Assembly (NCBI GenBank): GCA_030393635.1
Contig: GCA_030393635.1_4352.1
Length of the DNA stretch: 44,340 bases
Strand: one strand, 5' to 3'
Origin: a phage
Shown: positions 3,226 to 44,107 of the stretch, piece by piece
Numbering within the stretch: position 1 is the first letter of the stretch
Layout: the number at the start of each line of letters is the position of its first letter
Notes under the pieces: generated by a model
What the model saw: the letters and a program-made list of their open reading frames with translations, nothing else
Told to the model about the DNA's origin: nothing
The model's database searches: none
Program-made: the position numbers and the translations under genes

Positions 3226-3256
3226 GTCAATTACTCCTTAGTTAGTTTATATGTGA

Positions 3257-3318
3257 ATAGTACCATATTAATTATTTTAGAAAAGCCCATTGACATCATG
3301 AATAGTTCGCTATTATAG
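3257..3318. promoter_or_regulatory. Divergent promoter/operator region between the XRE regulator and the small ORF at 3352
   Basis: Minus strand: TACTAT -10 overlapping palindrome AATAG-TACC-ATATT (3256-3269). Plus strand: TTGACA (3290-3295), palindrome AATAG-TTCG-CTATT (3301-3314), -10-like TATAGT. Confidence 0.55.
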
Positions 3319-5711: not shown

Positions 5712-5740
5712 TTGACACCTGAATAGTTAGCTATTATATT
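5712..5740 (+). promoter_or_regulatory. Sigma70-like promoter with embedded palindrome, upstream of the SSB gene
   Basis: TTGACA (5712-5717), 17-bp spacer containing AATAG-TTAG-CTATT (5722-5735), TATATT (5735-5740). Confidence 0.6.
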
Positions 5741-6468: not shown

Positions 6469-6636
6469 CTAAGGGTCGAAAATAATGTTTTTCTGTAAGC
6501 ACGTTTATCGCTATATGAAACCGCTTCCGTGGTACGCGGATAAGTACCGGGCCGGATACCGGCATGTGTGGATTTGCCGTGATTGTATGAAAATAAGATT
6601 AAGCGAAACGAAGGCACTGGATTTAAGGAAAAAGAA

Positions 6637-8838
6637 ATGAGCTACTTATACCTGGACTTTGAAACATTCTCCGAAGCCGATTTAAAGAAAGTCGGTTCCT
6701 ACGCTTACGCCGAACATCCAACTACCGAAGTGCTTATCTGTACCTATGCTTTCGATGACGAGCCTGTGCAGGTATGGGATTGCACCGACGGCAGCGACAT
6801 GCCGGGCGATTTGCACCGCGCGTTACGCCGTCTGGTTAAGCCAAACAGCCGCATCAAGATGGTGTGGCACAACGGCTCAATGTTCGATCGCCTCATCATG
6901 AAGCACTGCTGGGGTTTTGGTATTCCGGTAAGCAACACCATTGATACTATGATTTGGGCGTTTCGTCACGCGCTGCCGGGTTCACTTGATGCGTTATGTG
7001 AAGTGCTGGGTGTATCCGCGGACAATGCAAAAGATAAACGCGGTAAGGCACTGATTCAACGTTTTTCTAAACCGACACCGAAGAACTACAAAATCCGCCG
7101 CTACACCGCCGAAACACACCCGGACGAGTGGGCGCTGTTCATCAAGTACGCCGTGAGCGACATCACTGCTATGCGTGAGGTCTTCCATAAGCTGCCGCGG
7201 TGGGGTAACTCCGAGTTCGAAGACCGTGTACTGGAACTTGACCAGTTAATCAATGACCGTGGGTTTAAGGTTGACGTTGCGCTGGCAGAAGCCGCTATTG
7301 AAGCCGTGGAGAAACACAAAGCGCAGTTACAGGAAGAAGCCCAACGCAAATACGGCGGCTCGCTTACCGGTAAGGACTTTCTGCCGATTCTGCGTGAACT
7401 CGCACCCGCGCACCGCATCCACAACGCGCAGAAGTCAACGCTTAACGACCTGCTGGCAGATGATGACTTACCAGACGACGCCCGCACGATTATCGAAATG
7501 CGCCTCGGGGCTGCGTCAACAGCGTCCACGAAATATAACCCGCTGCTGTTGGGCCGCTCGTCTGACGACCGTCGCCGCGGCTGCTTGCAGTACGGTGGGG
7601 CGAAACGGACTCTGCGATGGGCGGGTAAAGGCTTTCAGCCGCAGAACCTGGCGCGCGGGTACTATCACGATGATGAACTGGATAAAGGCATTTCTGCGCT
7701 ACTTAAAGGTCGTGCTCATCGCCGTTTTGACGTAGCCAAGCTGACGGCATCGACGGTTCGTAGCTGCATTATCCCAGAGGCAGGGCATAAGTTTGTCGTC
7801 GCCGATTACTCTAACGTTGAAGGCCGTGGGCTTGCGTGGCTGTCGGGCGAAGAAACCGCGCTTGATACGTTCCGCGCCGGACTGGATATTTACTGTGTAA
7901 CCGCGGGCAAGATGTTCGGTATGGACCCTGATGACATTAAGAAAAACTTCAAGGAAATCAGACAGATAGGCAAGGCCTGCGAGCTTGGCCTCGGCTATGA
8001 GGGAGGCGTCGGAGCATTCGTTACGTTCGCTAAAAACTTAGGTCTTGACCTTATTGAGATGGCAAAAACAATGGACGGTACTTTTCCTGATCATATATGG
8101 GCGGCTACCGCACGTGGTTATGAATGGGCGCGTATCCAGGAAGCAAAGCGACCCCCGCATCCTGGTGAAAAGGACGACAGACCATCGTATATTCTGGACA
8201 AGAAAGTGTGGCGCACATGCGACGCAATCAAGCGTATGTGGCGTGAGTCTCATCCGGAAACAGTAGCTTTCTGGTGTGACCTTAAAGACGGAATTTTAGC
8301 CGCTGTTCGTAATCCTGGTCGTGAATTTTGGGCAGGGGCACACTTGCGCAGGAATGGGGAAAGGGCTATCCGCATATGGCGCACCGTAGAAAACGATTCA
8401 TCCGGTAGGAAAGTTCCAGGTTGGTGGCTGTGTATGGAGTTGCCGTCAGGCCGTATCCTTTCGTATCCGGGAATCGGAGTTAGCGTGACAAAGGAAACAG
8501 ACGAAGACGGACGGGTAAACACGAATGTGCGAATCAAGTATCAGGGTGAAAACCAGTTAACCCGCCAATGGACTACCCTGTACACACACGGCGGCAAAGC
8601 CTGTGAAAACATTGTTCAGGCGCTGTGCCGTGATTTGCTGGCTAATGCCCTGCTGAACGTAGAAGCAAACGGCTACCCGATTGTGCTTCATGTTCACGAT
8701 GAAATTATCTGCGAGACGCCAGATTTACCGGAATACAATGTCGCAGAGCTTGAGCGATTGATGTGCGAATTACCGGAATGGGCTGAGGGGTTCCCTCTTG
8801 TGGCAGAAGGTGCGGAGATGAAGCGTTATGCCAAGTAA
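6637..8838 (+). CDS. Family-A DNA polymerase with N-terminal 3'-5' exonuclease
   Basis: ORF 6583..8838; ATG at 6637 after AAGGAAAAAG; Exo I-like LDFETFS; typical Pol I length and layout. Confidence 0.85.
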   Translation: MSYLYLDFETFSEADLKKVGSYAYAEHPTTEVLICTYAFDDEPVQVWDCTDGSDMPGDLHRALRRLVKPNSRIKMVWHNGSMFDRLIMKHCWGFGIPVSNTIDTMIWAFRHALPGSLDALCEVLGVSADNAKDKRGKALIQRFSKPTPKNYKIRRYTAETHPDEWALFIKYAVSDITAMREVFHKLPRWGNSEFEDRVLELDQLINDRGFKVDVALAEAAIEAVEKHKAQLQEEAQRKYGGSLTGKDFLPILRELAPAHRIHNAQKSTLNDLLADDDLPDDARTIIEMRLGAASTASTKYNPLLLGRSSDDRRRGCLQYGGAKRTLRWAGKGFQPQNLARGYYHDDELDKGISALLKGRAHRRFDVAKLTASTVRSCIIPEAGHKFVVADYSNVEGRGLAWLSGEETALDTFRAGLDIYCVTAGKMFGMDPDDIKKNFKEIRQIGKACELGLGYEGGVGAFVTFAKNLGLDLIEMAKTMDGTFPDHIWAATARGYEWARIQEAKRPPHPGEKDDRPSYILDKKVWRTCDAIKRMWRESHPETVAFWCDLKDGILAAVRNPGREFWAGAHLRRNGERAIRIWRTVENDSSGRKVPGWWLCMELPSGRILSYPGIGVSVTKETDEDGRVNTNVRIKYQGENQLTRQWTTLYTHGGKACENIVQALCRDLLANALLNVEANGYPIVLHVHDEIICETPDLPEYNVAELERLMCELPEWAEGFPLVAEGAEMKRYAK

Positions 8839-9505: not shown

Positions 9506-9697
9506 ATGAAACACGAATATGACCGAAAACCAGCACGTGACATCGTACCGGGCGACATGATTTTCAACGTTAAGACACGCCAGCCTGTTGCCGTTGATAC
9601 GGTGTTCGTCGAGTCGAACGGTAAACTGGTTATCGAAGATGTAACGGGTAACGTTACCGCGTTTGGACGTAAAGAGTTAGTTCTGGTGGCTAAATGA
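9506..9697 (+). CDS. Hypothetical protein
   Basis: 63-aa ORF with AAGGAATTGAG RBS. Confidence 0.5.
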   Translation: MKHEYDRKPARDIVPGDMIFNVKTRQPVAVDTVFVESNGKLVIEDVTGNVTAFGRKELVLVAK

Positions 9698-10716
9698 ACT
9701 ATTACAACGAATGGGATAAAGGCGCAGCCGCGTGGCTGCGTGAGTTGATAAAACAGGGTCACATACCTTTTGGAGTTGTAGATGAAAGAAGCATTACCGA
9801 AGTTAAGCCAGAAGACCTTGACGGGTTCACCCAGTGTCATTTTTTCGCTGGTATCGGCGGCTGGCCTCTCGCGCTCAGACTTGCGGGAGTTTCGGAAGAT
9901 ACGCCTCTCTGGACGGGAAGCCCGCCTTGCCAACCGTTTAGCGCGGCAGGAAAGCAACTCGGACAGTTCGACCCAAGACACCTCGCGCCTGTATTCCTCG
10001 ACCTCATCAGCGAGTGCCGCCCTCCAGTCCTCTTTGGGGAACAGGTTGCGCCAGCAATTGCAAAATCGTGGATGTGCGATTTACAAACTCACCTGGAAGG
10101 AGAAGACTACGCCGTCGGGTTTGCCGTACTCCCAGCTTGTAGCGTCGGCGCACCGCACAAGCGCGACAGATTGTTCTTTGGAGCGCATAGACTGGCCCAC
10201 ACCCGCAGTATCACCGATAACAAACGATGTGAATATGCGCAGTACAGACGGCAGAACGAAACCGAACAAACTGGGTTGGGCCGCTGCGATGGCGGCATGG
10301 CCCACTCCGACGACACGCGACCACAAGGACGGGAAAGAGTGCCTGAACGTGCCAACGAACAGTCTGCTGGGGCGGGAAGTGTGGAAAGCAAGTTGGCCGA
10401 CGCCACGAAGCGCCGACGGGGAGAAGAATGTCCGGACACTGAACGGCGCGTTGTCCGAGATTCAGAGGAAGGGTGGGCCCCAGGACGTGGCACAAGCGGC
10501 GGCTATAACACAACCAATACGCATAACGGCTTCTGGTCAGATGCTGACTGGCTCGGATGCCGGGATGGAAAATTCAGGCCAGTTGAATCCGGAACATTCC
10601 CGCTGGCTAATGGGATACCCGCCAGAGTGGGACGATTGCGCGGTTACGGCAATGCCATCGTCCCGCAAGTAGCCGCTGAATTTATAAAGGCATTCATGGG
10701 GGCGGTAAATGAGTAA
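9694..10716 (+). CDS. DNA cytosine-5 methyltransferase-like gene with apparent frame disruption (see finding)
   Basis: Frame 1 carries FFAGIGG, PCQPFSAAGK, FGEQV, GAPHKRDRLFFG and the C-terminal GNAIVPQVA; the overlapping frame 2 (9782..10672) carries three WPTP motifs and RWLMGYPPEW. Confidence 0.6.
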   Translation: MNYYNEWDKGAAAWLRELIKQGHIPFGVVDERSITEVKPEDLDGFTQCHFFAGIGGWPLALRLAGVSEDTPLWTGSPPCQPFSAAGKQLGQFDPRHLAPVFLDLISECRPPVLFGEQVAPAIAKSWMCDLQTHLEGEDYAVGFAVLPACSVGAPHKRDRLFFGAHRLAHTRSITDNKRCEYAQYRRQNETEQTGLGRCDGGMAHSDDTRPQGRERVPERANEQSAGAGSVESKLADATKRRRGEECPDTERRVVRDSEEGWAPGRGTSGGYNTTNTHNGFWSDADWLGCRDGKFRPVESGTFPLANGIPARVGRLRGYGNAIVPQVAAEFIKAFMGAVNE

Positions 10717-21596: not shown

Positions 21597-21626
21597 TTGC
21601 GCGCCCCAATATAATAGGGTACTATT
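21597..21626 (+). promoter_or_regulatory. Promoter with embedded palindromic operator, upstream of the Imm-like gene
   Basis: TTGCGC, 17-bp spacer, TACTAT; palindrome AATAG-GGTA-CTATT (21613-21626). Confidence 0.6.
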
Positions 21627-21655: not shown

Positions 21656-21847
21656 ATGTCAAGTTTACCGGTTTCCCTAATTCTATTTGCGCTGCTCGCT
21701 TATTTCGCACCTTTCCTGGTTGCGTATTTCCGCAACCATAAAGCGAAGTTGGCGATATTCATGGCCAATCTGTTTCTTGGTTGGATTCTGCTGCCGTGGG
21801 TCTTTATTTTAATCTGGGCATGCAACTCGAATGTTAACGAGAAGTGA
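21656..21847 (+). CDS. Superinfection-immunity-like small membrane protein
   Basis: 63-aa ORF with two transmembrane segments and NLFLGWILLPW, reminiscent of Imm-type proteins. Confidence 0.5.
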   Translation: MSSLPVSLILFALLAYFAPFLVAYFRNHKAKLAIFMANLFLGWILLPWVFILIWACNSNVNEK

Positions 21848-21885
21848 GCTAGTATAGGACAAATCCTAAACACGAGGAAGTAAGC

Positions 21886-23016
21886 ATGGCCCGGAAGAAA
21901 ATAACCGACGAACAATTACAGGAAGAATTGAACGCCGGAGTTAAAACTATCGATATAGCCCGTAAATATGGCATCTCAGACCGCGTTATTCGTATCCGTA
22001 AAGCGAAGCTGGCTAAGAAAGGCGTAGGCCACGGGCGCGACGTTAGCCACCTTGTCCCGGACGGCTACAAGATTAAAGGAACGTCGTCACTTGTAGACGA
22101 GTTCGGCAACACTAAGTTGCAATGGGTTAAGACCGATACTGACGCCGAACGTCAGGTCGAGTTAATGAAAGCCGTAATTGAGGGCATGAAGTCAGAGATT
22201 ACGCCCGTTGCTCCTGTTAAAGCCACCCGTTCCAAACGCGACGATAAACTACTCAATCTTTACACCGTGTCTGACTTTCATCTCGGTATGCTGGCCTGGG
22301 CCGACGAGAGCGGCGACGACTGGGATATGAAAATCGCGGAGGGCCTGTTCTCCCGATGGTTCGACGAGGCGTTTCAGAAAGCGCCGGACGCTGGGACCGG
22401 AGTTATTAACCTGCTAGGCGACTTCGCGCACTTCGATAGTCTGGTTGCCGTTACACCTGCAAGCGGTCACGCTCTTGACGCCGACACCCGTTATCAGAAA
22501 CTTGTCCGCTACATGATTCGTATGGTCCGCCGTGTTGTCGATATGGCGCTGGTTAAGCATAAAACTGTTCGCTTGCTTATTGTGCAAGGGAACCACGACG
22601 AAAGCGGAATGATTTGGTTAGCTGAGATGTTCAGTACGCTGTACGACAATGAGCCTCGTGTGTTCGTCGATACGTCGCCGGATGTTTACAAGATGGTGCA
22701 ACACGGCAAAACGACGCTGTTCTTTCATCACGGCCATAAGGCGCGATTCGACGCTATCGAACCGGTTATGATTGCCAAGTTCCGCAAAGCGTTCGGCGAG
22801 AGTGTTTACAGCTACGCCCACGTAGGCCACCTGCACCACCAGAAGGTTGTAGAAAGCCGTAACATGATTGTTGAGCAACACCGCACCTTAGCGGCCAAAG
22901 ACGCCTACGCCTCCCGTGGCGGATGGATGTCGGGCCGTAGTGCAAATGTAATTACTTATAGCGCCGAATACGGCGAGGTCGCGCGTTTAACTATTTCACC
23001 GGAGATGCTGGGATGA
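21886..23016 (+). CDS. Calcineurin-like metallophosphoesterase with N-terminal HTH
   Basis: 376-aa ORF; metal-binding GNHDE, FHHGHKA and HVGHLHH motifs; N-terminal IDIARKYGISDRVIRIRK HTH-like segment. Confidence 0.65.
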   Translation: MARKKITDEQLQEELNAGVKTIDIARKYGISDRVIRIRKAKLAKKGVGHGRDVSHLVPDGYKIKGTSSLVDEFGNTKLQWVKTDTDAERQVELMKAVIEGMKSEITPVAPVKATRSKRDDKLLNLYTVSDFHLGMLAWADESGDDWDMKIAEGLFSRWFDEAFQKAPDAGTGVINLLGDFAHFDSLVAVTPASGHALDADTRYQKLVRYMIRMVRRVVDMALVKHKTVRLLIVQGNHDESGMIWLAEMFSTLYDNEPRVFVDTSPDVYKMVQHGKTTLFFHHGHKARFDAIEPVMIAKFRKAFGESVYSYAHVGHLHHQKVVESRNMIVEQHRTLAAKDAYASRGGWMSGRSANVITYSAEYGEVARLTISPEMLG

Positions 23017-23498
23017 AAGATATTGTAATTTTCGATTTAGACGGGACATTAGCAGATGGTACACATCGTTTACACCTGCTGCCGAAAGATAACTACGGTG
23101 AAACATGGGCTTGGAAGCCTTTTAACATGGCGTGCAAAGATGATGAGCCAATTAGAGATAATATCGAACTATGTAACGCCCTTAATCGGCGATACGCCGT
23201 TATTATTTTAACCGGTCGCAGTGATGATGCAGAAAAAGAAACCAGAATGTGGCTGCAGCGCCACCGCGTCGAATTTTATAAGCTAATCATGCGCAGCAAA
23301 CACGACAACAGAAAAGACATCGTAATTAAAGAAGAGGTGTTACGTGCTATCGGGCTGGAAAGAATATTGTGCGCATTCGACGACTCTCCGGCGGTAATAA
23401 AGCATTTCCGCGGACTCGGTATAACCACTCACGCGGTTACTGAATACGACTGTAACGGGAATTCTACACACTTAAAATCACACGGGAGCGATAAATAA
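23013..23498 (+). CDS. HAD-superfamily phosphatase / nucleotidase
   Basis: 161-aa ORF; N-terminal FDLDGTL (DxDGT) catalytic motif. Confidence 0.65.
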   Translation: MKDIVIFDLDGTLADGTHRLHLLPKDNYGETWAWKPFNMACKDDEPIRDNIELCNALNRRYAVIILTGRSDDAEKETRMWLQRHRVEFYKLIMRSKHDNRKDIVIKEEVLRAIGLERILCAFDDSPAVIKHFRGLGITTHAVTEYDCNGNSTHLKSHGSDK

Positions 23499-24052
23499 TG
23501 GCTAAGGTAATTATTCTTAATGGCCCGGCGGGTTGTGGGAAAGACACACTTGCTATGGCGCTGGTAGAAATGGGCTTTGCGAAGGGAACTACCAGTTTCA
23601 AGAATCCAATGTTCAATATCGCTCTGGCGGCGTTAGGCCCGGATGCTTACCACGAGTTTCTCGACGGCTACGACGACCGGGCGCGGAAAGAAAAGCCAGA
23701 AGGTTTCCTTAATGGTTTGTCGCGACGTCAGTTCATGATTGCTATCTCTGAACAGTTCATTAAACCGGTTCTAGGCAGCGATTATTTCGGTAAGTATCTT
23801 GCTGAAAACTTGCCCGACGGCGATGACGTTTTTGTAGTGTCGGATGGCGGGTTCGCCAGCGAAGTAGCCCCTATCGTCGCCGCAGGTCATGATGTAAGAA
23901 TCGTTCGCTTGCACCGAGACGGCTATACGTTTGACGGTGATAGCCGCGGTTACCTGTACGATGTTGGCGGTGATGAAGATTATGATGTATACATCATACC
24001 TGGTGACGTTAAATCTAACGTTATAGACATTGCTTTAAAATTAGGTTTGTAA
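23498..24052 (+). CDS. Deoxynucleoside monophosphate kinase (T4 gp1-like)
   Basis: 184-aa ORF; P-loop GPAGCGKDT and YDVYIIPGD segment resembling T4 dNMP kinase. Confidence 0.6.
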   Translation: MAKVIILNGPAGCGKDTLAMALVEMGFAKGTTSFKNPMFNIALAALGPDAYHEFLDGYDDRARKEKPEGFLNGLSRRQFMIAISEQFIKPVLGSDYFGKYLAENLPDGDDVFVVSDGGFASEVAPIVAAGHDVRIVRLHRDGYTFDGDSRGYLYDVGGDEDYDVYIIPGDVKSNVIDIALKLGL

Positions 24053-30366: not shown

Positions 30367-30448
30367 AGTCAGTATGTCCCCTGGACGTTGGAACCCGGGC
30401 CACCCGGATTTACATGTCAAGAATAAATTATTCCAACATGCAAGGCAA

Positions 30449-30712
30449 CTATTCCAGAATATTCCTCACGTAATCCTGCAACATGAACACTTTCAGCCTC
30501 AGCTGCCGTACGCATTCGGCGTTCTTAACATCGATAGCTAAATCTTCGTCAGCGTCGCTACTTGGCAGCGCCAGTTTGCACGGCGGCTGCATCATCGTCG
30601 TATCCGGGGATGGAATTGGCGTTGGCGACGGCGCGGGACTTGAGCAGGACGCGAGCATCGTCGAAAGTGCACACGCTGCGGCCAGGCGTTTTAATGTACT
30701 TAACGACTTCAC
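30449..30712 (-). CDS. Outer-membrane spanin (Rz1-like lipoprotein)
   Basis: Signal peptide with lipobox LASC and Pro-rich SSPAPSPTPIPSPD; starts inside the i-spanin gene in another frame and extends past its end. Confidence 0.55.
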   Translation of the reverse strand: MKSLSTLKRLAAACALSTMLASCSSPAPSPTPIPSPDTTMMQPPCKLALPSSDADEDLAIDVKNAECVRQLRLKVFMLQDYVRNILE

Positions 30713-30944
30713 GGGTAATCACCTCTGATTTCGTCTTGCCTTCGTTATCAGCGGCGGCGGCCTTTGATTCGTCCTGCTGCTGCCGTTGTGTTTTCTTCGC
30801 TAACTCAACCTGTGCTTTCTGCTGTTGCTGCGAAACGAGATTCGCCCGGCCTTCGGTCCAGCCGATGCGGTATTGATAGTATCCGTGTGCGTATAACAGG
30901 ATGATGAAACATGCTCCCGCTACGACAGTTGCTTTAAGATTCAT
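30558..30944 (-). CDS. Inner-membrane spanin (Rz-like)
   Basis: 128-aa ORF; N-terminal TM helix, Q/K/E-rich coiled-coil, C-terminal periplasmic domain. Confidence 0.6.
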   Translation of the reverse strand: MNLKATVVAGACFIILLYAHGYYQYRIGWTEGRANLVSQQQQKAQVELAKKTQRQQQDESKAAAADNEGKTKSEVITREVVKYIKTPGRSVCTFDDARVLLKSRAVANANSIPGYDDDAAAVQTGAAK

Positions 30945-31194
30945 GTTTCTCCTTTCTCGATAAGTAAAGCCCCGCCATAAAGCGGGGCGCTAGTCCTTAT
31001 CATTTAAACATAGAAACGGCGTAATCTCAGTAAACCAGTTACTTTTTACACAAGCAATAGAGTACGGCCCTTCCGAACGCGTCAGCGTAACTACACTCAG
31101 GACTTACGTCCAGCTCCGTTACCTGCCCGCGCCGCGGTCGCTTGTTCATACTTCACAAGCTCAGGTGGAGCTTAGCACATTTTTAGTGAAAAGT

Positions 31195-31210
31195 CAACTA
31201 TTCGAATAGT
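31195..31210. promoter_or_regulatory. Perfect 16-bp palindrome AACTATTCGAATAGTT
   Basis: Read directly; contains the CTATT/AATAG half-sites in everted order, about 55 bp upstream of the -35 of the promoter at 31264. Confidence 0.5.
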
Positions 31211-31297
31211 TTATTCCAACATTTACAATTGAGTGGAATAACCGGAATAGGTGAATAAATAGTTTGCGCACCCCAACATAATAGGGTACTATTCACT
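31209..31297 (+). repeat. Copy A of an ~89-bp direct repeat carrying a promoter/operator
   Basis: Near-identical to 31599..31687; TTATTCCA...TGGAATAA inverted repeat, TTGCGC-17-TACTAT promoter, palindrome AATAG-GGTA-CTATT (31280-31293). Confidence 0.7.
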
Positions 31298-31321
31298 CAC
31301 ACCAACAAGAGGCGAGAAGAA

Positions 31322-31573
31322 ATGATTACGAAACCAGCAAAACATCGTGTACGGGACCTTGGTTCTTTTCTTAAAAAAGAGTATGAACAGGCCGAATTAC
31401 GCGGCGACATTTCGGCGTATATTGAGCTTCAGCAGATGCAACTGGACGCGCAAGAAGACGGGGATATGTCTCTATCCGCCGCGGTCGGCAGAAGTATGCG
31501 CCAGATTCGTGAAAAGTATGACCGAAACGTCTGGAATAGAGAGATTAACTTAACCCAAGAGACAGGGTATTAA
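31322..31573 (+). CDS. Hypothetical protein (83 aa)
   Basis: ORF with GAGGCGAGAAG RBS, flanked by its own promoter copy and terminator. Confidence 0.55.
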   Translation: MITKPAKHRVRDLGSFLKKEYEQAELRGDISAYIELQQMQLDAQEDGDMSLSAAVGRSMRQIREKYDRNVWNREINLTQETGY

Positions 31574-31604
31574 AACTGAGGCCCCTTTCGGGGCCTCAGT
31601 TTAT
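31574..31604 (+). terminator. Intrinsic terminator
   Basis: CTGAGGCCCC-tttc-GGGGCCTCAG stem followed by TTTATT. Confidence 0.7.
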
Positions 31605-31687
31605 TCCAACATTTACAATTCGGTGGAATAACTGGAATACTTAAATAAATAGTTTGCAAACACCAATATAATAGGGCACTATTCACT
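31599..31687 (+). repeat. Copy B of the ~89-bp direct repeat carrying a promoter/operator
   Basis: TTGCAA-17-CACTAT promoter with palindrome AATAG-GGCA-CTATT (31670-31683), upstream of the PAPS-reductase-like gene. Confidence 0.7.
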
Positions 31688-31709
31688 TAACTTGAACAGG
31701 AGGCATTAT

Positions 31710-32522
31710 ATGAAACATGTAATCAGTTTTTCAGGCGGCAGAACATCAGCGTACACAACCCTTGAAGTGCTTAAACTCTACCCCGATGCTGAGGTCATCT
31801 ATATGGATACTGGGGCGGAGCACCCCAAGACATACGAGTTCATCCGCAATTTTGCTAAGCACTTTAATATTGCGGTGACGTGCCTGCGGGTGGTCCCTAA
31901 CCCAGAAATGCGTAAGGCCAGTACCTATGAAGTCCTTAGTGTAGATGAAATAGGTCCTGACCTGGAGCCGTGGCGCAGAATGCTGCGTAAGTATGGGCAC
32001 CCATACGTCGGCGGCGCTTTCTGCACAGACCGGATGAAGACGGTGCCGTTCACCAAATACTGCGACGAGAAATACGGCAAAGGAAAATACGACAGATGGC
32101 TGGGGGTCCGCTGTGACGAACCTAAGCGCCTGGTAAACAGGAAAGATGGGTTCCACTATCTTGCAGACATAAGTGATTTTGAGAAACAGGACATAATCGA
32201 GTGGTGGGCGAAACAGGAATTTGACCTTGGTATAGAAGAACACTTAGGTAACTGTGTTTTTTGTATCAAAAAGAGCCTGCAAAAAGTAGCACTGGCGGCT
32301 AAGGATGAACCTCAGTTAGCCGAACAATTTTGGGGAATGATTCAGGAAGAAGACATAAAGCGGGATAAGGTTATGTATAGGTCGAACAGAACCCTCGGCG
32401 AGGTCATCGCACTGTTTCGGGATGAGCGCCGTGAGGAGCTTGCATCTCGTATACGCTCAATGCGGCAGTACGACACGGGGTCATGCAGTGAAAGCTGTGA
32501 AGCGTTTTCCGTTTCTGAATAA
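31710..32522 (+). CDS. PAPS reductase-like (PP-loop ATP-pyrophosphatase family) protein
   Basis: ORF 31692..32522 with ATG at 31710 after AGGAGG; N-terminal SFSGGRTS PP-loop motif; C-terminal cysteines CVFC and CSESC. Confidence 0.65.
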   Translation: MKHVISFSGGRTSAYTTLEVLKLYPDAEVIYMDTGAEHPKTYEFIRNFAKHFNIAVTCLRVVPNPEMRKASTYEVLSVDEIGPDLEPWRRMLRKYGHPYVGGAFCTDRMKTVPFTKYCDEKYGKGKYDRWLGVRCDEPKRLVNRKDGFHYLADISDFEKQDIIEWWAKQEFDLGIEEHLGNCVFCIKKSLQKVALAAKDEPQLAEQFWGMIQEEDIKRDKVMYRSNRTLGEVIALFRDERREELASRIRSMRQYDTGSCSESCEAFSVSE

Positions 32523-32523
32523 A

Positions 32524-32550
32524 ACTAAGGCCCCGTAATGGGGCCTTTTA
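32524..32550. terminator. Bidirectional intrinsic terminator
   Basis: AGGCCCC-gtaat-GGGGCCT stem with T-run. Confidence 0.7.
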
Positions 32551-33012
32551 TCATTCTGGCTTAGCGACCTTCGCCGCTTTGCTGACAGCCTCTACACCAT
32601 CAGCATCAGTAACTTTGACGAAGTATTCGCCTGCCGCGTTAACCGTCAGAGACAAAGCCTCTTCTGGGGCGTTGACCACTTCCTTCCCGTCTTTGTACCA
32701 TGTCAGCGCATATGGTGCTTTACCCGCTTTAACTTCTACGGTGATAGTTGCGCTGCCGCCCGCCAGTTCCTGGTCCTGCGGTTGCACAGAGAAATACACA
32801 TCGCCCGCGTCCGCCAGATACGGAATCTCATAAAGCATGCTCGCCGCAGGTAGTGCAATACCGGTTTTATCTGCAAACGGCATATCGTCTACCGGGGTAC
32901 CTAGTACACTTTCGTCTTCGATGAATACCACGTTCTCACCAGAACCGGACACTCGGGCGTACTGGACTACGCGACGCGATGGTACATCAGTTACTTTGAA
33001 AAAGCCCATCAT
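32551..33012 (-). CDS. Ig-like domain protein
   Basis: 153-aa ORF; APYALTWYKDGKEV...GEYFVKVTDADG Ig-like pattern similar to 27891..28241. Confidence 0.5.
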   Translation of the reverse strand: MMGFFKVTDVPSRRVVQYARVSGSGENVVFIEDESVLGTPVDDMPFADKTGIALPAASMLYEIPYLADAGDVYFSVQPQDQELAGGSATITVEVKAGKAPYALTWYKDGKEVVNAPEEALSLTVNAAGEYFVKVTDADGVEAVSKAAKVAKPE

Positions 33013-34088
33013 TATTCCCCTTTCAGATAATCAGCAACACGTTTATCGAGTTCCGCCATCTGCTTAAGCGTGAGCGGATTCCCGAAACCATCTACAGATA
33101 TTACGCGAAACTCTTCCGGCGATATACCGCTGTTGCGGAAAATCTTACCGCGAACAGGGCCTAGTGCTTCATCCTGAAACCATGCCGGTTGTTGTTTCAG
33201 GAACTCGTAATAGGTGGTGTCCGCACTTACCTGAGTACCGCCTTCGGCGCCCTTAGCCGCTCGTTTCGCTCCTTTATCGAGGAAGTCGAACTCCGAACTT
33301 ATTACAGGTGCCGTGCACGACCGACAGTTCGGATGGGCCGGAGGCATCGGCCCTTTACCAATTTCCCACGTCATTCCGTCTCTGGCTCTGCAAATCGTAC
33401 TGGTACGGCTGTCCAGCGTTGACACCCATTCGTACTTCTCGATGATGTCGTCGTTCTGACGGTACGTTTCGTTACGTGCTTCGTTGGATACGTGGGACAG
33501 CGCGGTGCGGATTACCGTAGCGGCGTTGCGTTCCGAGATGTCAGCCAGCCCGCCAGCGCCTACGACATTCTTAACAATCTGCCGTGTGGTTTGGCCTTGT
33601 ACAAAGCCCATCTTAACGCCGGTTACCAGGCGCGATACTTCTGTTTCGCCCCAGCCTGACATCAGCTTGGTGAAATCGACAGGCTTGTCGCCCAACGATA
33701 AGGGTTGAAACTCGGCAGCGGCCCACACCTGCTCTGCGGTAGGCGTAACAAATTCCACGTCAACGTTGGCGGTCAGCGTTTTTACGTTCCACTCTGCCTC
33801 ATACGCCGCCAGCTCCTTGAGGTCTTCTGTCAGCTTTGTTTGCCAGTCGCCTGTAAGCCCGGTTAATGCTTCTTCAATGTCGCGTAACAGTTTATTCAGG
33901 CGCGCTGTGCTGCGACCGTCGTCACCGAACAGCAAAACCTGCCATTTGATTTCGTCCCGCATTTCCTGAAGAAACGGCGCAAGGTCTTTCACTTCACCGG
34001 ATGCGGTGCGTTGCAGCCATATCTGGTGGCTGATTAGGGATGTAAGTAAGCTCATAGATAAACCCTGTGGTGCTAAAGTTAATAGCAT
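33012..34088 (-). CDS. Head morphogenesis / minor head protein
   Basis: 358-aa ORF immediately downstream of the portal gene. Confidence 0.55.
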   Translation of the reverse strand: MLLTLAPQGLSMSLLTSLISHQIWLQRTASGEVKDLAPFLQEMRDEIKWQVLLFGDDGRSTARLNKLLRDIEEALTGLTGDWQTKLTEDLKELAAYEAEWNVKTLTANVDVEFVTPTAEQVWAAAEFQPLSLGDKPVDFTKLMSGWGETEVSRLVTGVKMGFVQGQTTRQIVKNVVGAGGLADISERNAATVIRTALSHVSNEARNETYRQNDDIIEKYEWVSTLDSRTSTICRARDGMTWEIGKGPMPPAHPNCRSCTAPVISSEFDFLDKGAKRAAKGAEGGTQVSADTTYYEFLKQQPAWFQDEALGPVRGKIFRNSGISPEEFRVISVDGFGNPLTLKQMAELDKRVADYLKGE

Positions 34089-42656: not shown

Positions 42657-42687
42657 CTTCTGTCTCTCCTCTCGTTCATGTAAATGA

Positions 42688-42716
42688 ATAGTAGCCTATT
42701 CTATCTTAGTGTGCAA
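42688..42716 (-). promoter_or_regulatory. Promoter with embedded palindromic operator (minus strand)
   Basis: Minus strand: TTGCAC, 17-bp spacer, TACTAT; palindrome AATAG-TAGC-CTATT at 42687-42700. Confidence 0.6.
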
Positions 42717-44053: not shown

Positions 44054-44078
44054 TCCTCTGTCTCGTCTCGATAAGTGA

Positions 44079-44107
44079 ATAGTACCCTATTATGTTGGGG
44101 CGTGCAA
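44079..44107 (-). promoter_or_regulatory. Promoter with embedded palindromic operator (minus strand)
   Basis: Minus strand: TTGCAC, 17-bp spacer, TACTAT; palindrome AATAG-TACC-CTATT at 44078-44091. Confidence 0.6.

Follow-up and report, generated by a model that had tools for sequence, protein, structure and literature searches.

A member of the lambda NinC family encoded in a mobile, antiparallel cassette within the head-gene region of a Kagunavirus-like phage

The phage DNA analyzed here (the window; all 44,340 nucleotides of contig GCA_030393635.1_4352.1, GenBank assembly GCA_030393635.1) is a near-complete genome of 44.3 kb from a Kagunavirus-like siphophage (Guernseyvirinae). At 31710-32522 on the + strand it carries a gene for a 270-residue PP-loop protein with the fold of 3′-phosphoadenosine 5′-phosphosulfate (PAPS) reductases, which almost certainly belongs to the family of lambda NinC. 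The reading frame extends from an ATG at 31710 to a stop codon at 32520-32522 and encodes a protein of 31.5 kDa (pI 6.4), and a Shine-Dalgarno sequence (AGGAGG, 31698-31703), conserved in the cassettes of related phages, lies 6 nucleotides before the ATG. A program-made list of open reading frames begins this frame at a TTG at 31692; homologues all start at the ATG (MKxV...). The packaging, head and tail genes, placed with the help of the Bas75 annotation as well, occupy the - strand from ~37.4 kb down to ~12.5 kb. Thus, as an earlier note made from the letters alone had stated, the ninC-like gene is antiparallel to its head-gene neighbors: the Hoc-like (32551-33012), MuF-like (33012-34088), portal and TerL genes to its right are all on the - strand, as are the spanin, scaffold and major capsid genes to its left. 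The right half of the window shows ~90% nucleotide identity to the E. coli phages BUCT825, GZMU_E2010 and EM1, and the window as a whole matches ~520 records of Escherichia and Salmonella phages.

In a BLASTP comparison, the protein was 47% identical to lambda Nin290, that is, NinC (AAA96588.1; J02459 41081-41953), over residues 1-267 (E = 6e-91), and it matched PHROG families 33262 (E = 4e-103) and 424 (E = 1e-62). This full-length homologue adds a member to a family that has long been known but is biochemically uncharacterized, and is not a new kind of element. The earlier note had recognized a PAPS-reductase/DndC-type PP-loop protein, and that kinship stands, but it had overlooked the NinC identity. 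Homologues of NinC were found in 543 of 50,697 phage records, including Vibrio, lambdoid, P22-like, Chi-like, Klebsiella and other phages, and formed ~750 clusters at 50% identity in a library of 1.8 billion proteins (E <= 1e-10).

Conservation was assessed with 150 representatives that are at most 50% identical to each other and reach down to ~30% identity. The conserved residues, numbered as in the window protein, are S8-G9-G10-x-[T/S]12-S13, T34-G35-x-E37, C105, K110, G132-x-R134-x-D136-E137-x-x-R140, G180-N181-C182-x-x-C185-x-x-K188, R224 and C259-x-x-x-C263. All of the family-invariant residues are present in the window protein, with conservation of 97-100% for nearly all of them and of 93-94% for G9, G35 and R224. 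The SFSGGRTS motif (residues 6-13) and the cysteine pairs C182xxC185 and C259xxxC263, to which the earlier note had drawn attention, are indeed present; C118 is not conserved, which leaves three internal cysteines and a cysteine pair on a disordered tail as the family pattern. The canonical motif of active PP-loop enzymes is SGGxDS, with an aspartate, but the corresponding position in this family is threonine in 88% and serine in 11% of members (SGGRTS in the window protein). Many homologues (P0026 and P0087 among them) also carry an insertion of ~60-70 residues behind GxRxDExxR, which would place it after about residue 143 in the window protein, and this insertion is a variable subdomain. The ninC-like gene is under strong purifying selection, since the ratio of nonsynonymous to synonymous substitution rates (dN/dS) was 0.067 in the comparison with the Salmonella phage S4lw copy and 0.077 in that with a metagenomic copy.

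The gene lies between two hairpins, which bears out the bracketing terminators that had been proposed from the letters. The upstream hairpin (31573-31602; 13-bp stem; −25.6 and −26.0 kcal/mol; T-rich tails on both strands) is followed by TTTATT and is predicted to end transcription of the preceding + strand gene, orf83, while insulating the cassette on the - strand. The downstream hairpin (32527-32547; −15.4 and −16.1 kcal/mol; detected on both strands) is followed by TTTTATCATT and would end the ninC-like transcript on the + strand and the Hoc-like/head transcript on the - strand. Because both hairpins are T-tailed on both strands, they should also stop a - strand head transcript that would otherwise read antisense through the cassette.

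A generic sigma-70 scan of 30400-33200 performed at chance level (3 promoters found versus 3.1 expected), and the promoter call therefore rests on the analysis of a recurrent motif, which replaced that scan. The 17-nucleotide motif TATAATAGGGTACTATT occurs eight times in the window versus 0.09 expected. The copy TATAATAGGGCACTATT at 31667-31683 (+) is 27 nucleotides upstream of the ninC-like ATG, and the others are at 3256-3272(-), 3301-3317(-), 5722-5738(-), 21610-21626(+), 31277-31293(+), 42687-42703(-) and 44078-44094(-). The extended consensus, cTTGCRCnCCCCAA-TATAAT-AGGG-TACTATT-CACTTA, can be read as a −35 element TTGCRC and a −10 element TACTAT with a 17-nucleotide spacer (TTGCRC-N17-TACTAT). 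Most copies examined precede the start codon in a non-structural transcription unit by ~25-45 nucleotides; the exception, at 5722, points toward the 3′ end of a + strand gene and could be an antisense or an inactive copy. An alignment placed the same element before the ninC copy of phage S4lw. The motif is probably the main early or middle promoter class of the phage, and expression of the ninC-like gene would be expected early in infection. A second antiparallel unit, within the - strand tail and structural region, lies behind the same motif at 21656-24052 (+) and comprises a 63-residue open reading frame, an SbcD-like DNA repair exonuclease (21886-23016), a HAD/PNKP-type phosphatase (23013-23498) and a 184-residue protein with no Pfam match.

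The motif upstream of the ninC-like gene is part of a larger module. Positions 31598-31687 (+) form the second copy of a 90-nucleotide direct repeat, 88% identical to the first copy at 31208-31297 (+), which precedes orf83 and contains the motif at 31277-31293; the two copies are 390 nucleotides apart, so that the promoter module is duplicated before two successive cargo genes. The second copy contains a −35-like TTGCAA (31655-31660), TATAAT (31667-31672) and a −10-like CACTAT (31677-31682), and is 94% identical to the region upstream of a + strand gene for a 67-residue protein in Bas75. This upstream repeat and the enrichment of the motif indicate that the ninC-like gene is under the control of a promoter class that recurs in this phage, independent of the late head operon, in agreement with the claim that it has its own promoter. 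The duplicated module points to a gain or exchange of cassettes through recombination within promoters and terminators.

The slot between the spanin and Hoc-like genes is a cargo hotspot. In all the Guernseyvirinae relatives examined this slot holds one or two + strand genes, but the cargo differs: a 67-residue protein in Bas75, proteins of 33 and 114 residues in phiEc4, a 173-residue protein in XY2 and VIPECOMC04, and a 179-residue protein in Salmonella phage L223 (coordinates in the compared loci: L002 4113-4316, L008 1613-2055, L009/L010 1984-2505 and L011 1962-2501). The slot cargo genes of four relatives gave no significant Pfam or PHROG family, and such genes are either unannotated or dubiously labeled 'RusA-like' or 'sliding clamp' in the records. 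In the window the slot holds two tandem promoter-gene-terminator units, the first of which is orf83 (31322-31573, +; 83 residues), which has a promoter copy and a very strong terminator of its own; Pfam and PHROG searches with orf83 returned no family. The 377-bp spacer that separates the hotspot from the spanin genes contains a further GC-rich terminator-like hairpin with a T-rich tail (30969-30988, -), just upstream of the i-spanin start at 30944.

The cassette is missing from nearly all of the ~520 related phages, including Bas75 and the other relatives examined. Among phage records, the sole close copy is in Salmonella phage S4lw (OQ660438.1; 85% nucleotide and 91% amino acid identity), where the slot is another one, between the MuF-like gene and the portal gene. 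Homology to S4lw is limited to 31665-32547, from the promoter core to the terminator, with the downstream hairpin as its 3′ limit. A metagenomic contig has a 94%-identical copy in the same slot as in the window, and an unrelated phage of ~45 kb has an 81%-identical copy that is co-directional with its neighbors, DNA polymerase A and an SNF2 helicase. Since the cassette is found in another slot in S4lw, in the same slot in the metagenomic relative and in a replication module elsewhere, we conclude that it is a horizontally exchanged accessory unit, a moron. To judge from the sequence, it has the features of one: its own promoter motif, its own terminator, absence from close relatives and insertion within another transcription unit. 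The earlier note had already described a moron-like layout, which the variable occurrence among relatives upholds; the conserved hotspot and the duplicated promoter module had escaped it. The G+C content of the cassette (48.8%, versus 51.2% genome-wide and 52.6-56% in neighboring head genes) was considered as a strong sign of foreign origin and rejected, the AT shift being only mild. Two observations concern the records of the relatives: L223 has a + strand gene in the MuF-portal slot as well (L011 5028-5380), where S4lw has ninC, and the GenBank product names of S4lw look shifted by one gene, with the ninC coding sequence labeled 'portal protein', the MuF-like one 'PAPS_reduct domain-containing protein' and the portal 'terminase'.

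The AlphaFold2 model of the protein (predicted local distance difference test score, pLDDT, of 86, falling below 50 in the C-terminal tail at residues 255-263) resembles reductases of adenosine 5′-phosphosulfate (APS) and PAPS and other PP-loop enzymes, with APS reductase 2goy as the top Foldseek match, and on this model the protein has the adenine-nucleotide alpha-hydrolase fold. A fold search of BFVD returned only unannotated or 'PAPS reductase' phage proteins, plus QueC. The Pfam model PAPS_reduct (PF01507) scored 35.2 bits versus a gathering threshold of 22.5, but aligned only to residues 3-64 (profile positions 2-63 of 175), and a PDB profile search covered only residues 4-70. The PP-loop fold implied in the earlier note was therefore found.

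Sequence resemblance to CysH and SspD is confined to the N-terminal part. Four curated models of CysH and APS reductase (NF002537, TIGR00434, TIGR02055 and TIGR02057) scored 17-24 bits versus cutoffs of 154-254. The catalytic ECGLH motif, verified for comparison in the E. coli CysH tail (KRECGLHEG), is absent from the window protein, whose C-terminus is GSCSESCEAFSVSE. When the NinC profile was compared with E. coli CysH, the alignment ended at column 66 and did not reach C105, C182 or C185. In APS reductases, CCxxRKxxPL and GCxPC are the candidate counterparts of C105xxxxK110xxP and GNCxxC, and C105, C182 and C185 the putative counterparts of the Fe-S ligands. Among defense-system models, PADLOC SspD was the best match (E = 1e-11; residues 2-142, model positions 1-125 of 277), followed by BrxP (2e-5), and no DndC model in NCBIfam or PADLOC matched at E <= 1; lambda NinC matches DndC weakly (E = 0.004). 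We conclude that the protein resembles the PAPS-reductase/SspD/DndC branch in fold and motifs but is a member of the NinC family only. The PAPS-reductase/DndC-type relatives named in the earlier note are thus real, but by curated thresholds the protein belongs to neither the CysH nor the DndC family.

The associations of NinC homologues point to DNA. In 6 of the 150 representatives NinC is fused to a DNA N6-adenine methyltransferase (Dam, PF05869, in five; D12 class, PF02086, in one), N-terminally in some and C-terminally in others, and no other fusion partner recurs. The start of ninC and a Dam gene share 4 nucleotides in lambdoid phage Oslo. Elsewhere, NinC genes are found among replication, recombination and nucleotide-metabolism genes or in packaging-module hotspots, and none of the homologues examined has a sulfur-assimilation gene beside it.

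Experimental evidence on the family was found solely for podophages of Vibrio crassostreae, in which transfer of p0018 and p0019 let a phage grow on a Dnd+ host (Piel et al.; bioRxiv 10.1101/2021.05.05.442762). The p0018 product of phage 44E38.1, for which an identical gene was found in the database, is a 479-residue NinC-Dam protein whose N-terminal 278 residues are 55% identical to the entire 270-residue window protein, including all five invariant cysteines. Homology thus supports an anti-Dnd role for this domain. The possibility of genome modification or anti-defense raised in the earlier note gains support from this identity and from the Dam-type fusions and neighbors. In a 2026 paper the Vibrio work is cited to show that Dnd can be evaded by means of phage PAPS reductases, which are also said there to be concentrated in variable regions; another paper writes that the proteins 'deserve further investigation'. 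JSS1_004, a known anti-Dnd protein, was considered as a relative and rejected; it is a T7 gp0.7-like kinase.

The explanation that we favor for these results is that the window protein is a DNA-directed counter-defense enzyme that handles sulfur. As a PP-loop (adenine-nucleotide alpha-hydrolase) enzyme on the PAPS-reductase/SspD/DndC branch, it would hold an iron-sulfur cluster on C105, C182 and C185, as in APS reductase, DndC, TtuA and LarE, and C259 and C263 on the disordered C-terminal tail would receive sulfur, as persulfide, from IscS, the cysteine desulfurase of the host. The PP-loop site would bind ATP or adenylate with it, after which the enzyme would target phage DNA, either alongside the DndC/SspD step of the host or as a substitute for it; another possibility is that the enzyme titrates the host DndC/SspD machinery. 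In either case, phosphorothioate-dependent restriction (Dnd, Ssp, BREX type 4) would no longer treat the phage as foreign. A counter-defense or DNA-directed role as such seems to us slightly favored, the explanation overall evenly balanced between true and false, and the link to phosphorothioates, taken by itself, less likely than not. Within the proposal we prefer an action that depends on the host to autonomous modification, because no modification is known in the DNA of lambda ninC+ phage and because known phosphorothioation systems need ATPase and DNA-recognition partners.

Several points weigh against a sulfur-handling counter-defense enzyme. The aspartate of the PP-loop motif is replaced by threonine or serine family-wide, so that ATP pyrophosphatase activity is not assured. 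Superposition on known PP-loop enzymes covers only ~160 of 270 residues, the SspD match is limited to the generic N-terminal core, and DndD/E or SspB/C partners are missing from the window. Nor does the protein have a DNA-binding domain, and its pI is close to neutral. Dnd and Ssp systems are sporadic in enterobacteria, yet NinC is common in their phages. Lambda DNA from ninC+ phage, a standard 'unmodified' substrate, is not known to contain sulfur or an unusual base, which argues against autonomous, dense DNA modification. We found no biochemically characterized NinC protein in the literature; what is written on the mechanism of NinC or of phage PAPS reductases amounts to 'nonessential' or 'poorly understood', the genetics of Piel et al. 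and speculative remarks. Finally, the Vibrio phenotype resulted from a two-gene swap (bioRxiv 10.1101/2021.05.05.442762), and p0018, unlike the window protein, includes a Dam domain.

The alternatives are taken in the order autonomous DNA modifier, RNA- or nucleotide-directed enzyme, decoy and, least likely, sulfate-assimilation enzyme. An autonomous modifier would, together with host IscS, adenylate a position in DNA and swap oxygen for sulfur or nitrogen, and the resulting thio-base or partner-independent phosphorothioate would give general protection against classical restriction enzymes. The fold and cysteine pattern do resemble those of the [4Fe-4S] nucleic-acid thiolases TtuA and NcsA, the gene is solitary in many unrelated phage contexts, and it is fused or adjacent to DNA methyltransferases. 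However, lambda ninC+ DNA is not known to have sulfur or an unusual base, and the missing DNA-binding domain and the near-neutral pI count here as well. Known DNA phosphorothioation systems, moreover, require an ATPase and a DNA-recognition or nicking partner, as described in the literature, and we regard this alternative as improbable. A related reading for the whole family is unlikely, though less so: NinC proteins may be phage enzymes for sulfur-based DNA self-marking or for hijacking host machinery, in which a single 31-kDa PP-loop/iron-sulfur protein and host IscS would place a phosphorothioate or thio-base on phage DNA, or the protein would join host Dnd/Ssp complexes.

Equally improbable, in our view, is a PP-loop enzyme directed at RNA or nucleotides, which would thiolate or aminate tRNA or modify free nucleotides and so tune translation, repair tRNA damaged by defense systems or alter the nucleotide pool. 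It is favored by phage Chi, where the NinC gene is beside a nucleoside 2-deoxyribosyltransferase gene and near ThyX, but the protein lacks an RNA-binding domain (THUMP, PUA or the TilS C-terminal domain), NinC is recurrently fused to DNA methyltransferases and not to RNA enzymes, and the only genetic phenotype of the family concerns a DNA-restriction system.

The loss of the PP-loop aspartate could instead mean that the protein is a non-catalytic decoy, a mimic of DndC or SspD that binds IscS, DndDE, SspBC or DndFGH and poisons the defense without chemistry. SspD is the closest match in the defense library, and SspD and DndC are reported in the literature to form complexes with their desulfurases. 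Conservation down to ~30% identity is nevertheless of the active-site and not the surface type (SGG, TGxE, K110, GxRxDExxR, GNCxxCxxK and CxxxC), which makes a decoy more doubtful still. Least credible is an assimilatory PAPS or APS reductase, an auxiliary metabolic gene that would raise the supply of sulfite and cysteine during infection: the PAPS_reduct score, the closest structural neighbors (APS and PAPS reductases) and the flexible cysteine-bearing tail recall CysH, but the short Pfam match, the low curated scores, the truncated CysH alignment without ECGLH, the retained ATP-type SGG loop (SSSFG in CysH), the fusions to DNA methyltransferases, the lack of sulfur-assimilation neighbors among homologues and the presence of CysH in the host all oppose it.

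Two other features of the window are recorded here. A C5-cytosine DNA methyltransferase (PF00145, PHROG 363) is encoded in the replication module at 9694-10716 (+), apart from the ninC-like gene, and is of another class than the Dam enzymes fused to NinC elsewhere. A DNA polymerase reading frame at 6583-8838 (+) has an internal segment (residues 463-555) that matches the endonuclease family phrog_93 and may be an inserted homing-endonuclease or intein-like element.

NinC has been unexplained in lambda since the genome was sequenced, and databases routinely call its homologues a sulfur-metabolism 'auxiliary metabolic gene', a label that the evidence presented here argues is misleading. If counter-defense is its function, the NinC family would be a new enzymatic type of anti-restriction, and the cassette could be moved as a module into therapeutic phages to broaden their host range in the face of phosphorothioate-based defenses. 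Were the self-marking or hijacking reading to hold, it would provide a new class of anti-restriction mechanism and a function for lambda ninC. The window copy is a clean experimental handle, being solitary and methyltransferase-free in a virulent, genetically tractable E. coli phage, and natural relatives without the gene, or with other cargo in the same slot, add to its value for testing NinC.

TtuA, NcsA and LarE keep the aspartate of SGGxDS and have known RNA or cofactor substrates, whereas NinC has threonine or serine at that position. CysH (2goy, 1sur, 6vpu) shares DTG..PET-like and G.R.[DE]..R motifs with the window protein, and its mobile catalytic tail parallels the NinC cysteine pair on the disordered tail; unlike CysH, the window protein fails the curated thresholds, aligns over ~66 residues, has a different set of C-terminal 100 residues without ECGLH, and keeps the ATP-type SGG loop where CysH has SSSFG. 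SspD, DndC and BrxP share the Pfam superfamily and the fold, and the SspD model is of similar length (277 positions). DndC is described in the literature as holding a 4Fe-4S cluster on three cysteines, with a separate cysteine dyad thought to carry sulfur, an arrangement that parallels the three and two invariant cysteines of NinC. In contrast to these proteins, the window protein is similar in the N-terminal core only, and it is phage-borne and solitary, with no desulfurase nearby; the dndD/dndE and dndA/dndB genes of a DndC-type operon are absent, and the neighbors are orf83 and the spanin, Hoc-like and MuF-like genes.

The closest comparisons are within the NinC family. Like the window gene, p0018 is accessory and varies between closely related phages, but it has a C-terminal Dam domain, whereas the window protein stands alone and ends at residue 270, and the only methyltransferase in the window, the distant C5-cytosine enzyme, is unlike that Dam domain. 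Lambda NinC is of the same length class and shares SFSGGRTS, TGxEHP, FCTDR.K, GIRxDEPKR, LGNCxFCIKK and GSCSESCE with the window protein, and both genes are dispensable accessory genes; the literature describes lambda ninC as nonessential and assigns it no function. Lambda ninC, however, is co-directional with its neighbors in the nin region, between ninB and ninD, and under PR/N antitermination, whereas the window gene is antiparallel, insulated by terminators and preceded by its own promoter, and lies within the head operon of a virulent phage of the Guernseyvirinae.

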